NCBI RefSeq assembly: GCF_024223415.1
Contig: NZ_CP100500.1
From: Escherichia coli
GTDB lineage: Bacteria; Pseudomonadota; Gammaproteobacteria; Enterobacterales; Enterobacteriaceae
Length of the DNA stretch: 64,000 nt
Strand: one strand, 5' to 3'
Position 1 is the first letter of the stretch. Every line of letters begins with the position of its first letter. Positions 23,682 to 29,862 of the stretch are shown here, one piece after another. A model generated the notes under the pieces. It ran no database searches, had not been told where the DNA came from, and was given only the letters and a program-made list of their open reading frames with translations. The position numbers and the translations under genes were made by a program.

Positions 23682-26192
23682 ATGAGCCATCACCACACGC
23701 ACCTGGCGTACCCGTGGAACGCCCCGCTGCCGGTTATTGATCCTGAGACATTCGGCAGAGCATTACCGCAGAAGCCAACCGCATTACAACGGGCAATCCG
23801 TGACTACCTCACCGAAGACATTCGCACTGAGGCCCGGCTGGATGAAGAAACCGTGGCCTTCCTGACAACCACGGACAAAGGTAAGCAAATTAATTCACAC
23901 CTTCACCGGGACGAAGAGCGGCAGATAAGGCTGGATAAGCTGGCACGACACAGACGCGAAAATCCGCCAACGGCGGTATCGGAGGCGATAGCCGAACTTC
24001 GCACCCTGCCCTCGTTTCTTGCCAGTGTGTTGATCCGTGATCTGGCACGACTGAACCGGAAACAGCAAAGTGCCCGCAGTGAAGGTGTAAAAAACAACAG
24101 CGCATACGTGGCCGATAATTTCGTTCGCCGTGGACTGCGTGCGCGCCTGAAACGTATTGAAAGGGTTAACGACCGCTTTGCAACGCCGGCATTCAAAACC
24201 ACCGTCGTGCGCCATCGCCTTGAAGAACTGCTCACACTGCCGCAACTCACCCGTGACGAAATCCAGCGCATCGCCACACTGACAGCCCAGGCATTCGCCG
24301 CAGAATTTGAACGCATATGTGATGAAGTTCTTGAACGGACAGGCAAGGATAATGACAGCCCGGTTATCTGGCTGCTGGCCTACCAGAAGGTGGCACGCAC
24401 AGCCTTAATTCTGGGCGTGGTCCCGCCATACTGGCCGGAACTCGAAATCAGGCACAACCGACGCACACCGCCGGACCCTGAACGGGTTCCGGGTGCGGTA
24501 CTGCGCATCACCTGCGCGACCTGGTGGAACAACCAGTTACGCCACGTCGCCGATCTCTGGCGGGAGGAGTTACTGCGCGCCGCCGGCAGAGTGTCACGTA
24601 AACAATCCCCCTATATCAGCCATGAGTCACTACTGGAGTTCCGCGAGAAGCGCCAGCGCACCCGTGACTTTCTCAAAAGCTGGGATATTGAAAACGAAGA
24701 CGGCGAGCGCCTGAGTCTGGAGGACGTGTACTGGGCTGGCCTGGGTAATCCACGCAACCGCCGCAATGAAATGATGGTCTGCGTCAGAGGGATGGAGATG
24801 GTGGCCGAATTACGGGCTGACGTCGCATTCTTCATCACAGTAACCACCCCTTCCCGCTTTCACAGCGTGAACGAGAACGGCAGCCTGAACCCGAAATACA
24901 ACGGTGCCACAGTACGAGATGCCAGTGATTATCTGGTTTACGACTTCTTCGCAGCCGTAAGAAAAAAAATAAAAAAAGAGGGGCTGGGCTGGTACGGCGT
25001 GCGAACCGCTGAGCCACACCATGACGGCACGCCACACTGGCATATGCTGGTATTCACTTCCCCGGAGAACGCAGAGCGCATCATCGAAATTATGCGCGAA
25101 GCAGCAATTAAATCAGATCGCCACGAACTGGGGGACGATATTTCACCGCGCTTTAAATGCGAGAAGATAGACCCGGAAAAAGGCACACCGGCAAGCTATA
25201 TCGCAACCTATATCGGTAAGAACCTGGACGCCAGCGCTTTCCACAACAATGATCCGAAAACCGGAAAACCTTACGTTGATGAGGAATCCGGGAAAACCAT
25301 GGCGGAAACCGTGGAGAACGCCATTGCCTGGGCAAGCCTTCACCGCATCCGTCAGTTCCAGTTTTTCGGCATTCCGCCCCGCCAGGTATGGCGTGAACTC
25401 CGCCGCCTTGCAAGCCAGATGGAGCGCAACCCGGCATCACCGAAGCACCTCGATCATGACGATATTGACGCCATTATGGCTGCCGCAGATGTGGGATGTT
25501 TTGCCACCTACATCATGAAACAGGGTGGTGTGCTCATTCCGCGCAACCAGTATCTGGTCCGCACCGCATACGAAACCGCAGACGAAGCCAACGACTACGG
25601 TGAATTCCCTCAACGTATCTACGGAATCTGCGCCCCGTCGCTCGGAGAGCGGTACACCATATGCACCCATCCGGACGAGTGGAAACTGGTTAAAAAAGAA
25701 ACAACACCAGACAACCGCACGGGCGAGGGTTTTGACCTTCAGGGCGACCCCGTCGCCCCTTGGACTCGTGGCAATAACTGTCCCCGGGATGAAAAAACAG
25801 ACAATCACGGACCAGAAAACAGGCAGGACCCCGGACGACTGACGCTTCCCGAAGAGAACCTGGAAAGCTGGCTGAATACGTTAAGCAGGGGCGATCGGAG
25901 AAAACTGCGTAATCAGATTAAAAATCAGCCGTCGGGCGCAAAAACCGGACAAAACGACACCACACCGGCATCTGACACCCCTGTAAGGGTGGGGATTGTC
26001 GTGCCTGCGGATACCGCGACGGACACGCAAATCGCCCGCGAACTTGATGCGCTGGGTGTGCAGTTGCCTGACGCGGCCATCATCTCCGTGCGTAACGGTG
26101 CCCGTGTGCGTCTGGATAACGGGGGAACAGCGTACTGGGATGAGTCAGCCCGTCACATCATCACAGAGCAGCCAGTGGAGGCGGGAGCATGA
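23682..26192 (+). CDS. P2 gpA-like rolling-circle replication initiation endonuclease
   Basis: 836 aa with a conserved core including the HxH-type motif (PHWHMLVF) and the surrounding region (FFITVTTPSRFHS...YGVRTAEPHHDGTPHWHMLVF) as in P2/186 A proteins. Confidence 0.85.
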   Translation: MSHHHTHLAYPWNAPLPVIDPETFGRALPQKPTALQRAIRDYLTEDIRTEARLDEETVAFLTTTDKGKQINSHLHRDEERQIRLDKLARHRRENPPTAVSEAIAELRTLPSFLASVLIRDLARLNRKQQSARSEGVKNNSAYVADNFVRRGLRARLKRIERVNDRFATPAFKTTVVRHRLEELLTLPQLTRDEIQRIATLTAQAFAAEFERICDEVLERTGKDNDSPVIWLLAYQKVARTALILGVVPPYWPELEIRHNRRTPPDPERVPGAVLRITCATWWNNQLRHVADLWREELLRAAGRVSRKQSPYISHESLLEFREKRQRTRDFLKSWDIENEDGERLSLEDVYWAGLGNPRNRRNEMMVCVRGMEMVAELRADVAFFITVTTPSRFHSVNENGSLNPKYNGATVRDASDYLVYDFFAAVRKKIKKEGLGWYGVRTAEPHHDGTPHWHMLVFTSPENAERIIEIMREAAIKSDRHELGDDISPRFKCEKIDPEKGTPASYIATYIGKNLDASAFHNNDPKTGKPYVDEESGKTMAETVENAIAWASLHRIRQFQFFGIPPRQVWRELRRLASQMERNPASPKHLDHDDIDAIMAAADVGCFATYIMKQGGVLIPRNQYLVRTAYETADEANDYGEFPQRIYGICAPSLGERYTICTHPDEWKLVKKETTPDNRTGEGFDLQGDPVAPWTRGNNCPRDEKTDNHGPENRQDPGRLTLPEENLESWLNTLSRGDRRKLRNQIKNQPSGAKTGQNDTTPASDTPVRVGIVVPADTATDTQIARELDALGVQLPDAAIISVRNGARVRLDNGGTAYWDESARHIITEQPVEAGA

Positions 26193-27138: not shown

Positions 27139-27348
27139 ATGGCTATTGCCGCAAGTTACACCATGCATCTCTATTGTGATTGTCGCCAGTGTACAAATGG
27201 TAAATATCAAACGCCAGACTTCGGTGAATATATCGGTACGTCATGGACTGGCTGTGCAAAAGAGGCGCGTAAGGATGGCTGGCGAATAAGCAAAGACAAA
27301 ACTCGTGCTTTTGCGCCCGGGCATAAAGTTTTGAGGATTAACAAATGA
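27139..27348 (+). CDS. hypothetical small Cys-rich protein, possible zinc ribbon
   Basis: 69 aa with a CxCxxC ... C arrangement (C13, C15, C18, C39); start overlaps the upstream stop. Confidence 0.45.
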   Translation: MAIAASYTMHLYCDCRQCTNGKYQTPDFGEYIGTSWTGCAKEARKDGWRISKDKTRAFAPGHKVLRINK

Positions 27349-27746
27349 CCACTATAACCAAAGAGCGACTACTGACAATCAGGCAGTGGCGCGAAACATA
27401 CGGACCTGGTAGCAACGTTGTACTGCCAGCCGAAGAAGCGGAAAAACTGGCACGGATTGCTTTGGCATCGCTGGAAGCAAAACCAATAGGTGCTTTCCAC
27501 ATTGCAGAACAGCAGGTCGATGGCACAAGTGACTACATCAAGGATGGGGAGTACCGCTTGCTGACATCTGAAGAACAAAAGATAGCCCAACTTTTAGGCG
27601 ATGCATGGAACCTGTATTTTACATTGCCAGTTGAGCATCCAATGGGTAGAGATGAATTTTGCCGGGCAATTCATCATTGCCAAAATATGGTGTTGGCACG
27701 CCCTGCCATCAGGGCGCTGGCCAGTAAGGGGCAAGGCTATAAATAG
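27345..27746 (+). CDS. hypothetical protein (cargo operon)
   Basis: 133-aa ORF whose start overlaps the upstream stop (ATGA); followed by a terminator. Confidence 0.5.
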   Translation: MTTITKERLLTIRQWRETYGPGSNVVLPAEEAEKLARIALASLEAKPIGAFHIAEQQVDGTSDYIKDGEYRLLTSEEQKIAQLLGDAWNLYFTLPVEHPMGRDEFCRAIHHCQNMVLARPAIRALASKGQGYK

Positions 27747-27761
27747 ATGAGCAAAACGCCC

Positions 27762-27790
27762 TCCTCCAGGGCGTTTATTTCAATGCACAA
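27762..27790 (+). terminator. rho-independent terminator after the cargo operon
   Basis: aacgccct-cctcc-agggcgtt hairpin followed by a T-rich tract. Confidence 0.55.
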
Positions 27791-27792
27791 TA

Positions 27793-27819
27793 GTGCACAA
27801 ATTTGCACAATTTTTTTGA
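27793..27819. promoter_or_regulatory. three TGCACAA direct repeats phased at exactly 10 bp
   Basis: TGCACAA at 27793, 27803 and 27813, i.e. one helical turn apart; candidate protein-binding array. Confidence 0.4.
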
Positions 27820-28236
27820 ACGACTTTTTGCCCTTCCGGCCCGTGTGGCGTCTGGATCCGTCGGGGATCCGTGCGTGCACGAAAAAAGGCCTTTTTCTGC
27901 GCGCAGGTGACGGGGGAACAGCCCGCGTTTCAGGGGGTAAATAGCATTCCCTGAACGATGTTGCAGCGACACAACAGAATGGCTGTATTTCTCACGCTGA
28001 GCGTAAAAAAGACGTAAAAGCTTGATTTGATGGGGGTGAAAGATAAGGCCGTCAAAATCGCACTGAGGCAGCGAGAATATGTCGTCAGAGTTGCGGGGTT
28101 GCGTAAGCATCCGCCCGGCGATGATGGCTACAAGGTTGGAGATGTTGTGAAATTATCTGAAGGAATAACCAGCTTGCAGGAGAACCCGGGCAAAGTCAGA
28201 ATAGCGGCAGGCATCAACTCAAAAGAGGATAATGTC

Positions 28237-28740
28237 ATGAGCCACTTTAATGATTTATGCCAGATCAATCGTGAAGCTGAAGAAAAACGCGCTGAGGCAG
28301 CTCAAATTTTGCGGGATGAAGCGGCAAGGCTGATTGATTTCTATGAAGAATGGCTGGGGCTTCCATCCATGTACTGGGAAGACGATGATGGCGACCTGCA
28401 CCGCTACGTGGAGACAGGCTTGCCATGTAAGACAGCGGCGGATTTTAGTCCTCTTTCAGTCCACAATATCGCATCTGCACCAGACAATATTTTCCGCATG
28501 GCCGTGCGAACCTGGGTTAAGTCATCTGACAGCAGCTACCCGGTAAGCGTGGTTATTGCACTTGAATTATATTCAGTAGATGCGGAACGGGTGTCTCTGA
28601 GAGTCCGGGTGGAAGACGATATTTCTGTTCGCGTATTTATCAATAAACCCAGCGAAGAAGCCTGGGGCGATGTTGTTATGCACATGAAAAAGCACATCGC
28701 TAATCACCTGAAAAAGCGAGCGCCATCAGCACTTCGTTAA
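28237..28740 (+). CDS. hypothetical acidic protein between the cargo operon and the portal gene
   Basis: ORF 28027-28740; ATG at 28237 has the best RBS (aagagga, 7 nt spacer), giving 167 aa (MSHFNDLCQINREAEEKRAEAAQ...). In-frame alternative start at 28030. Confidence 0.5.
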   Translation: MSHFNDLCQINREAEEKRAEAAQILRDEAARLIDFYEEWLGLPSMYWEDDDGDLHRYVETGLPCKTAADFSPLSVHNIASAPDNIFRMAVRTWVKSSDSSYPVSVVIALELYSVDAERVSLRVRVEDDISVRVFINKPSEEAWGDVVMHMKKHIANHLKKRAPSALR

Positions 28741-28755
28741 GCAGAGCTGGAGAGT

Positions 28756-28780
28756 CGGGGCATAAATTTTTTATGCCCCG
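28756..28780. terminator. bidirectional terminator hairpin between the convergent hypothetical gene and Q
   Basis: cggggcataaa/tttttatgccccg palindrome with A/T tracts on both sides. Confidence 0.55.
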
Positions 28781-28806
28781 GCGAAGCAGCAGACAAGCGA
28801 AGCGCG

Positions 28807-29862
28807 TCAGGATATGGGCTGGGTGTCTAACAGTGCGTAAGGGTTAAAACGGATCACCTCTTCGCCCAGCCAGTCGTTGACGTGTTTCATTGCTTCCATG
28901 ACGGGCATCAGTTCGTTAATGGCAAACACACGGGCTGCCTTCTCCACATCCCCGAATGACCCCTTCTCACCCGGCATGGCCCCCATCAGCTGCGGCGGTA
29001 CACGGTGCACGGACAGCACATCATCACGCGATGCAGCCTTGACGTTCATGAACTCATCCTTTGCGGTGATTTGCTGAAACGGCAAAATCTGTACGCCATC
29101 CTTACCACCTCCCGCCGCGTGGATGAGCAGATTTTTAAACGCCCCGCCACCACGCGCGCTTTGCAGTGTTTCCCGCAGTTTTTCCATGCTTTCACGGTCA
29201 ACCTGCGCCGCACCGATGTAGACAATACAGCCCGCGTGTGAGCCGTTATCGTAGTAGAGCTTGCGGAAGATATCGGCGGAATGTGACAGGCTGGCAGACA
29301 GCAGGCCGCCCAGGTAATCCGGCATCCCGTAAATCTCCTGGTTGATATCAGGATTCATCAGGTGGCATATCGTCCCCTCACGAAAGCGGTACTCTTCCTG
29401 TCCTTCCTGTATATACCACCATGATTTCATATCGCTGCCACGTCGCATGTATTTCGCCAGCGCCCGGCGCAGGGCCAGCGGTTCGCCAAGCATGTTGCGC
29501 CGCAGCTCAAGACAGGCATTACCGAACACAAACCAGTCCATCGCCACCCCGGCGAACTCCTGGCGGGACAGCAGAGGATGTGGAATATAGCAGCCCAGCA
29601 GCACATTACGTTTGAAGCTGAGCGCCGACTGGTGCCAGGACGTCTGGCGGGCAGCCCGTGCCAGTCCGTACCAGTCAACGGGCGTTTCAAACCACCGCCC
29701 GTTGTCGGCGCAGTACATGCTGTCCAGCAGGTCGGCCCCTGACAGCCGGTAAGGTCCTTCAAACGTGAAGGCACTTAGTGTCGGGTCGCTTCGCAGGGAA
29801 TCCGCAAGGCTGCCCTGCGCTGCGCGGGCGTTCGTACGTCGTTGTTTATTTTTTCTGCTCAT
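28807..29862 (-). CDS. P2 gpQ-like portal protein
   Basis: 351 aa; size, position next to the terminase gene (overlapping P's stop) and conserved blocks resemble P2 Q. Confidence 0.85.
   Translation of the reverse strand: MSRKNKQRRTNARAAQGSLADSLRSDPTLSAFTFEGPYRLSGADLLDSMYCADNGRWFETPVDWYGLARAARQTSWHQSALSFKRNVLLGCYIPHPLLSRQEFAGVAMDWFVFGNACLELRRNMLGEPLALRRALAKYMRRGSDMKSWWYIQEGQEEYRFREGTICHLMNPDINQEIYGMPDYLGGLLSASLSHSADIFRKLYYDNGSHAGCIVYIGAAQVDRESMEKLRETLQSARGGGAFKNLLIHAAGGGKDGVQILPFQQITAKDEFMNVKAASRDDVLSVHRVPPQLMGAMPGEKGSFGDVEKAARVFAINELMPVMEAMKHVNDWLGEEVIRFNPYALLDTQPIS

Follow-up and report, generated by a model that had tools for sequence, protein, structure and literature searches.

A probable cargo gene of the phrog_5091 family beside the portal gene of a P88-like prophage in Escherichia coli

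Our results argue strongly that a 167-codon open reading frame (ORF) in a 64,000-nucleotide stretch of Escherichia coli DNA (assembly GCF_024223415.1, contig NZ_CP100500.1; hereafter the window, meaning this whole stretch) is an optional cargo cassette, or "moron," of a P88-like P2-family prophage. The ORF lies next to the portal gene and encodes a 167-aa protein of the family phrog_5091. Taken as a whole, the reading that we favor, to which we assign a probability of roughly 40%, is that of a self-contained cargo gene whose product is a non-enzymatic protein of biological conflict. The parts of this reading differ in strength. An accessory role is well supported, and exclusion or defense as the biological role, which we propose by analogy, is tentative.

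The cargo reading is based on comparison with collinear relatives. The region is 100% identical to the chromosomes of several E. coli strains, in which the NCBI Prokaryotic Genome Annotation Pipeline (PGAP) calls a P2-family prophage with a replication endonuclease, portal, large terminase, GPO scaffold and P2-family capsid, and, of the named phages, Escherichia phage P88 and its relatives (Xuanwuvirus, Peduoviridae) come closest. Identity to P88 and P88_4B11 is ~90% over 27829–28160 and again from ~28744, and relative to both phages the DNA between these points is a clean insertion (Table 1). The inserted DNA is also unlike its neighbors in base composition, with a G+C content of 48% overall and 47% at third codon positions (GC3), compared with a GC3 of 61–67% in the prophage genes Q, P, A and N. 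A search for direct or inverted repeats flanking the cassette found none, and a transposon-like insertion was rejected on that ground; because such repeats are missing around a compositionally foreign cassette, recombination in the conserved flanks is a more probable route of entry than transposition. With gene A at 23682–26192 and Q as listed in Table 1, the ORF falls in the gpA–gpQ interval, a hotspot of P2-like phages whose contents include defense genes (Rousset et al. 2022, PMC9122126) and whose context is also treated in a 2024 preprint. The original prediction, made from the sequence alone, had placed the gene in this hotspot as a candidate accessory gene and had proposed mapping its presence and absence in related prophages. 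Both its position and its optional nature bear this out: P88 lacks the gene, and among 5426 complete E. coli genomes 31 carry it, compared with ~1140 that carry its flanks.

Judged by its substitution pattern, the ORF is under purifying selection, with pairwise ratios of nonsynonymous to synonymous substitution rates (dN/dS) of 0.12–0.25 to five homologs at dS values of 0.4 to >2. Such ratios at saturating dS speak against a decaying remnant or chance ORF that is no functional gene, as do a length kept across genera, a confident predicted fold and 59 structural relatives in AFDB50. We find that explanation hardly credible, even though no function is annotated for the gene anywhere and the gene is rare in E. 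coli. The gene is also dispensable, to judge from strain NRZ14408 (L028; NZ_LT599825.1, 3384996–3388293), in which it is split by the IS21-family element ISEc12 (istA/istB) and the neighboring prophage genes are intact. The insertion site corresponds to about 28333–28339 of the window, the junction carries a duplication of ~7 bp of the gene, and PGAP annotates the two halves as separate hypothetical proteins. At the other extreme of copy number, NZ_CP135671.1 (TUM9803) and NZ_CP172185.1 (GF60) have three to four places that match the gene, at loci ~1 Mb apart, which implies that multi-copy genomes hold several co-resident P2-like prophages with the same cassette.

Comparative evidence leaves us confident that this is a real gene and that its true start is ATG 28237. 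Longer forms of 236, 234 and 197 aa are carried by PGAP/RefSeq, JGI and UniProt (the long form in PGAP is WP_223942718.1), and the original prediction had raised an alternative start at 28030 that could add ~70 aa. In-frame starts do exist upstream (TTG 28027, ATG 28030 and GTG 28036) and the frame is open from 28027, so the possibility had to be weighed that the true product is the long form, of 236 aa from ATG 28030 or 234 aa from GTG 28036, with a basic N-terminal domain added. We consider this very unlikely. The phrog_5091 profile matches the short form almost from end to end (E = 3.1e-52; residues 1–166 against profile positions 2–163 of 164), and a profile search matched no part of the extension (28030–28236). 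The same Met is the start in six of seven aligned close homologs, five of 167 aa and one of 169 aa, and the M-x-H-F N-terminus, MSHF in the 167-aa protein, is invariant among them. The extension consists of backbone DNA that is found in P88 without the gene: its first 44 codons are the P88 backbone ORF "gp22" (42 aa, GTG start; equivalent to 28036–28160), whose stop codon is replaced by the insertion in the window, and the remainder (28161–28236) is the putative promoter and untranslated region (UTR) of the cassette. ATG 28030 is out of frame in P88, owing to a 1-nt indel, and in the closest homolog (L012, 87% identity), whose left junction lies ~70 bp farther upstream than that of the window, a TGA closes the extension frame ahead of the cassette. 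The conserved promoter motif described below sits 3′ of 28030. Finally, no Shine-Dalgarno sequence stands 5′ of ATG 28030, whereas a strong one precedes ATG 28237, in agreement with the good ribosome-binding site originally described, and a GAGGA/GGAG-type motif is kept at the same spacing from the ATG in homologous cassettes. On these alignments the extension is a junction artifact, a short backbone ORF fused to the cassette; the longer annotated forms exist because the insertion took away the stop codon of that short reading frame.

A 42-aa "hypothetical protein" is annotated at the equivalent of 28036–28160 in P88 (L002:4306–4434), P88_4B11 and vB_EcoM-705R2. Its frame is unconserved, being 12 codons long in L012 and fused to the cassette in the window, and the 42-aa ORF of P88 is probably not a gene but a piece of conserved cos-adjacent DNA.

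Table 1. Coordinates of the 167-aa gene and of the features around it in the window
Feature	Position	Strand	Basis or remarks
Conserved non-coding core, candidate cos/packaging site of P88-type phage	27784..27929		Conservation and position
In-frame 5′ extension annotated by PGAP, placed outside the real protein	28030..28236	+	Alignment with P88, L012 and phrog_5091
Inserted cassette (putative promoter, 5′ UTR, coding sequence)	28161..28743	+	Alignment with P88 and P88_4B11; ~580 bp in place of ~9 bp CTGATACAG
Putative sigma-70-type promoter, TTGCAG (28174–28179), 17 nt, CAGAAT (28197–28202)	28174..28202	+	Motif conservation
Shine-Dalgarno sequence GAGGA	28225..28229	+	7 nt 5′ of ATG 28237
Coding sequence of the 167-aa protein (phrog_5091 family)	28237..28740	+	ATG 28237 to TAA 28738–28740, 167 codons and stop
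Backbone "terminator module": hairpin and conserved GCGAAGCAGCAGACAAGCGAAGCGCGTCAG, including the portal stop codon	28744..28810		P88 and homolog alignments
Portal gene (Q homolog), convergent neighbor	28807..29862	-	Last ~5 codons inside the terminator module

The cassette also appears to bring its own promoter. The motif CTTGC[ACT][GA]-N17-CA[ACG]AAT is present 30–39 nt 5′ of the ATG in 10 of 12 P2-context cassettes, which belong to three subfamilies with 20–30% protein identity and have differing spacers. Because nine fixed bases at a fixed distance far exceed chance, we infer that the motif is a conserved sigma-70-type promoter that travels with the cassette. The two exceptions are L006, in which the gene lies 50 bp after a ParM/StbB operon, and L012, in which the −35 element was lost at the junction. 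In the window, the putative −10 element ends 34 nt before ATG 28237, which would put the start of transcription near 28209–28211; the motif there agrees with the consensus at only 7 of 12 positions, and a consensus promoter scan did not report it. The upstream operon ends at its own terminator-like hairpin with a T-run (27754–27776), which is consistent with independent transcription of the ORF. The gene had been described as separate from that operon and independently transcribed; the terminator supports the first statement, and the second agrees with a promoter-like motif that is conserved across subgroups and whose activity is putative. As a side observation, the last ORF of the upstream operon (133 aa, 27345–27746) looks chimeric: its N-terminal half matches phrog_60, phrog_3323 and phrog_660 (unknown function), and its C-terminal 62 residues match phrog_13916, labelled "DNA ligase." At the equivalent of 27345–27746 in strain SCU-115 (NZ_CP054368), PGAP gives only a 135-bp partial pseudogene.

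One part of the original prediction that does not survive is the long structured leader that it gave the gene. The DNA in question (27776–28236) is mostly phage backbone, since the region occurs in P88-type relatives without the gene and its core is widely conserved, and it is better described as a conserved cos-type region. Its overall folding has a z-score of −1.68, and an Rfam search of 27600–28900 gave a single gyrA match, on the hairpin, that scored 22 bits and fell below the threshold of 45, so that an RNA element in the "leader" was rejected. The core (Table 1) is all that diverged P2-like phages of Salmonella, Edwardsiella and E. coli share of the upstream region. With the query extended to 27935 it is found in 1139 of the 5426 complete E. 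coli genomes and is never annotated. Its position matches that of P2 cos, which adjoins Q (P2 record; PMC9122126), and it is probably the cos or packaging site of P88-type phages. The P2 cos 19-mer has no match at ≤3 mismatches, and local alignment to the P2 cos junction recovered a 20-nt patch only. The core contains the palindromes GGATCCGTCGGGGATCC and AAAAAGGCCTTTTT, the second of which is kept in P88 as the near-palindrome AAAAACGCGCTTTTT. The ST131 reference strain EC958 shares the core.

Relatives of the gene were found in temperate phages only, at slots that hold optional cargo. A word-indexed search gave nine close clusters (62–100% identity) in E. coli, Salmonella and Edwardsiella, and all recovered contexts of close homologs are P2-like prophages in which the gene, on the gene A strand, follows the cos-type core and converges on the portal gene. 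In L006–L008 it follows a partition operon and two other genes come before the portal gene; a 209-aa gene that adjoins the family member in L006 was considered and does not belong to phrog_5091. An exhaustive profile search of 1.84 billion representatives returned 31 proteins, nearly all of 158–183 aa. A second word-indexed search with a broad profile added little, scans of viral contigs gave no match for P0022, P0031 and P0033, the contigs carrying P0015 and P0017 are too short for their context to be read, and the sequences in the broad family alignment vary too much for pattern scanning. At 31% identity, a further subgroup (L019–L022) is directly convergent with the portal gene in diverged P2-like phages. 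A more distant 174-aa paralog (URE76763.1 / WP_000236495, from phage vB_EcoM-705R2), which matches the family profile with an hhalign probability of 99.6% and also belongs to phrog_5091, occupies the same cos-to-portal slot of P88-like phages in 397 of the 5426 complete E. coli genomes, and its matches among phage records include an O25b:H4-ST131 prophage. This paralog (174 or 175 aa) lies between the terminator module and the portal gene (L018:3486–4010 in vB_EcoM-705R2; L010:6648–7175). In L010 and L011 it stands in tandem with a 167-aa member, and such tandem paralogs might form a heterodimer. Taken together, phrog_5091 proteins occur in roughly 8% of complete E. coli genomes, the ST131 reference strain EC958 among them.

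Further members, which likewise match the phrog_5091 profile, occur in lambdoid phages, either between a Q-like antiterminator and the lysis genes (L023, L029) or between endolysin/Rz and the small terminase gene (L026). The family is thus phage-restricted in every context seen, at module boundaries that classically hold cargo. In L023 (5001–5036), L024, L025 and L029 (4965–5000), an upstream in-frame ATG adds ~12 residues (MLIPYKNCLEK...), and this extra peptide overlaps the GGAG/GGTGG Shine-Dalgarno sequence of an internal ATG that matches the family N-terminus. Because the "conserved" peptide coincides with that Shine-Dalgarno sequence, the annotated starts of the lambdoid relatives are doubtful as well.

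On its 3′ side the cassette meets the terminator module of the backbone, whose hairpin closes the portal/terminase operon. The hairpin begins 16 nt after the ORF stop, with perfect 11-nt arms (28756–28766 and 28770–28780; 13 pairs in the RNA fold) and a folding energy of −28.9 kcal/mol on the + strand (z = −6.1) and −22.2 kcal/mol on the − strand. The gene had been said to converge with Q on a bidirectional terminator. The convergence and the strong hairpin are there, but "bidirectional terminator" is only partly apt because neither strand of the hairpin has a U-tract. The hairpin is also part of the backbone: the module is 92–100% identical in P88, which lacks the gene, and 3′ of every close family member. 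Copies of the module (~65 bp), with the portal stop codon of the window, also occur away from the portal gene, at L006:8510–8574 and in NZ_AP045178.1 (hit H65), where they adjoin Ogr/Delta-like zinc-finger genes. These stray copies suggest that recombination during cargo exchange is anchored at the module. The right-hand junction (28807–28825 compared with L018:4025–4045) lies inside the portal gene. The portal protein ends in ...ALLDTQPIS in the window and P88 and in ...ALLDEKTAP where the 174-aa cassette is present, and in the latter case the portal stop codon falls in the loop of that cassette's own terminator.

The protein is predicted with confidence to have a compact fold that offers few clues to enzymatic activity. 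It has an isoelectric point (pI) of 5.36 and a net charge of −7. The acidity originally ascribed to it is therefore real and also mild, and it is not universal in the family, in which the median pI is 5.4 (range 4.3–8.5) and the closest homolog has a net charge of 0. No membrane segment (maximum Kyte-Doolittle 19-residue window, 1.15) and no signal peptide were detected, and by these criteria the product is soluble and cytoplasmic. AlphaFold2 with a 34-sequence alignment gave a model with a mean local confidence score (pLDDT) of 91.4 and a global fold score (pTM) of 0.86, with which an 8-sequence model agreed: a helix (residues 3–40), a seven-stranded antiparallel sheet (within 46–134) and a second helix (139–159). 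The FP domain of PI31/Fbxo7, actin-capping protein subunits, class I type III secretion chaperones and frataxin/CyaY are likewise two-layer sandwiches built as helix, antiparallel sheet and helix. In the 34-sequence alignment L40, W47, Y57 and G61 are invariant and L32, Y36, L42, G52, V58, F70, T92 and K151 nearly so. Because the conserved positions are almost all core hydrophobic residues or glycine, with no recurring constellation of a catalytic type, we somewhat favor a non-enzymatic protein that acts stoichiometrically by binding another macromolecule. Foldseek returned 59 full-length matches in AFDB50 with TM scores of 0.7–0.9, all uncharacterized and from Enterobacterales, Pseudomonas, Halomonas and Aquitalea, and nothing below E = 0.07 in the PDB.

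Searches for a known function gave little. Pfam and NCBIfam had no match for the 167-aa query at E ≤ 10 and none at E ≤ 0.001 among 34 family members; PADLOC-DB v2 had none at E ≤ 0.01 for the short form, the long form or 10 distant relatives; and PDB sequence searches with the single sequence and two profiles yielded nothing usable. With tblastn, the 167-aa protein had no match at E ≤ 1e-5 in 50,697 phage records and none in 72,556 plasmid records. The hidden Markov model and structure searches, which the original prediction had listed among its checks, linked the gene to no conserved virion or packaging protein, the finding that would have refuted that prediction, and phrog_5091 has no structural or packaging PHROG annotation. 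A SUKH-immunity protein, raised by an "L-x-L-P" motif, was rejected for want of Pfam or structural matches, and a Tin homolog was rejected at an hhalign probability of 0.6%. A literature search on the accessions and phrog_5091 found no paper. WP_000236495 is listed as "hypothetical" in locus table S5 of PMC9122126 and is not in the tested-systems table or the other supplementary files of that study. A 2026 preprint gives a machine-learning antiviral signal for 15–32% of P2 proteins of unknown function.

What might such a protein do? In the model that we favor, the cassette would be expressed from a weak sigma-70-type promoter and a ribosome-binding site that it carries with it, the backbone hairpin would serve as its 3′ end, and the product would bind another macromolecule stoichiometrically, with no catalysis. 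It would thereby serve as a lysogenic-conversion protein in phage–phage or phage–host conflict, in the manner of P2 Tin, to which it is not related. Tin is a non-enzymatic protein that poisons the replication of a competitor by binding one of its proteins. We arrive at a conflict role because of the cassette's own putative promoter, its cos-proximal place in the gpA–gpQ hotspot and the relatives in lambdoid cargo slots. Several points weigh against this model. Searches of PADLOC, NCBIfam and Pfam with the query and its distant relatives gave no homology link to defense or anti-defense, no experimental link was found, and the protein has no effector-type domain. The promoter in the window would be weak, and its activity is predicted only. 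The lambdoid relatives lie inside the late operon and are without the promoter motif, a position that points to expression in lytic growth and could mean that the protein serves the phage. A single E. coli genome can hold as many as four copies, a finding that is hard to square with exclusion of close P2-like relatives.

The lambdoid relatives are also what gives weight to a different possibility, that of a counter-defense or host-modulating factor, comparable to DinI-type cargo, that would bind and inhibit a host protein (such as a defense sensor, or a repair or stress protein) to the advantage of the phage at induction or in lytic growth. As the first gene after a Q-like antiterminator, they would be plentiful late in lytic growth; the protein is small and soluble, with no catalytic signature and with a variable surface over a conserved core; and genes of the DinI type are common in this hotspot (Table S5, PMC9122126). 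Nonetheless, the P2-type cassettes have a constitutive-looking promoter, known anti-defense genes are usually early, and the protein has no homology to any known inhibitor. Its acidity is too modest and too poorly conserved for a DNA mimic to be likely. We regard this role as unlikely, though less so than that of a semi-conserved helper of the phage cycle, associated with cos or the portal in packaging, which strikes us as improbable. The constant spot beside portal and cos across diverged P2-like lineages, even at 31% identity, would suit such a helper, as would the lambdoid member directly 5′ of a small terminase gene. Yet the gene is absent from P88, P2 and most phages that share its flanks, tolerates disruption by an insertion sequence, is oriented opposite to the late Q–P operon and has a foreign G+C content. 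Two other lambdoid members lie between antiterminator and lysis genes, away from packaging, and the family lacks a structural PHROG annotation. The remaining probability falls to some other role.

Our study has implications for how cargo in this hotspot is annotated. The hotspot itself was already known, the family was catalogued as one of unknown function, and unannotated cargo was to be expected there. What our analysis adds is a corrected gene model, a portal-side sub-slot defined together with its nested points of insertion, a promoter motif conserved among cassettes, ties to lambdoid relatives and to a common paralog that occurs in an O25b:H4-ST131 prophage record, and a confident fold with no solved analog. 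An annotation error has spread through RefSeq, JGI and UniProt, where the 197-, 234- and 236-aa forms join backbone DNA to the 167-aa protein. Within the gpA–gpQ hotspot, the interval between the candidate cos and the portal gene appears to form a separate sub-slot, with junctions that reach the last codons of the portal gene. More speculatively, and at odds we would put well short of even, phrog_5091 may represent an unrecognized, structurally novel class of stand-alone prophage conflict proteins, for exclusion or defense or for counter-defense, shuffled as promoter-bearing single-gene cassettes. The targets of such shuffling could be the cos-to-portal slot in P2-like phages and the antiterminator-to-lysis slot in lambdoid phages. 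A compact, phage-restricted family, with one paralog in 7% of complete E. coli genomes, is well suited to a simple phage-challenge test; if no conflict phenotype is seen, the ORF stays an ordinary hypothetical cargo gene.

Comparison with known systems places the gene among the cargo of temperate phages. Like tin and old, P2 genes within the gpA–gpQ interval (P2 record), it is optional cargo of that hotspot with its own promoter, independent of the early and late circuits and putative for the 167-aa gene; unlike tin and old, which lie on the gpA side of cos, it is found between the candidate cos and the portal gene. In P2 the corresponding stretch holds only cosL, tQ and the 187 bp between cosL and Q (P2 record), in keeping with the original statement that the gene has no P2 counterpart. 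The 174-aa paralog shares the slot and the promoter-like motif, and it differs in having ~22% identity to the 167-aa protein and in lying 3′ of the terminator module, with its own U-tract terminator and new C-terminal codons for the portal gene, whereas the 167-aa gene lies 5′ of the module. Another P2-like phage, phiCTX of Pseudomonas, reportedly carries ctx between cosL and its homolog of the portal gene, likewise a single foreign cargo gene in the cos-to-portal slot of a P2-family genome, although ctx is said to encode a secreted pore-forming toxin rather than a soluble cytoplasmic protein. In lambdoid phages, the slot from the Q antiterminator to the holin is the position of stx in Stx phages, and two phrog_5091 subfamilies (L023 and L029) are found there. 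These lambdoid copies lack the promoter motif and would be read from the late transcript, whereas the copy in the window sits in a P2-type genome, convergent with the late operon.

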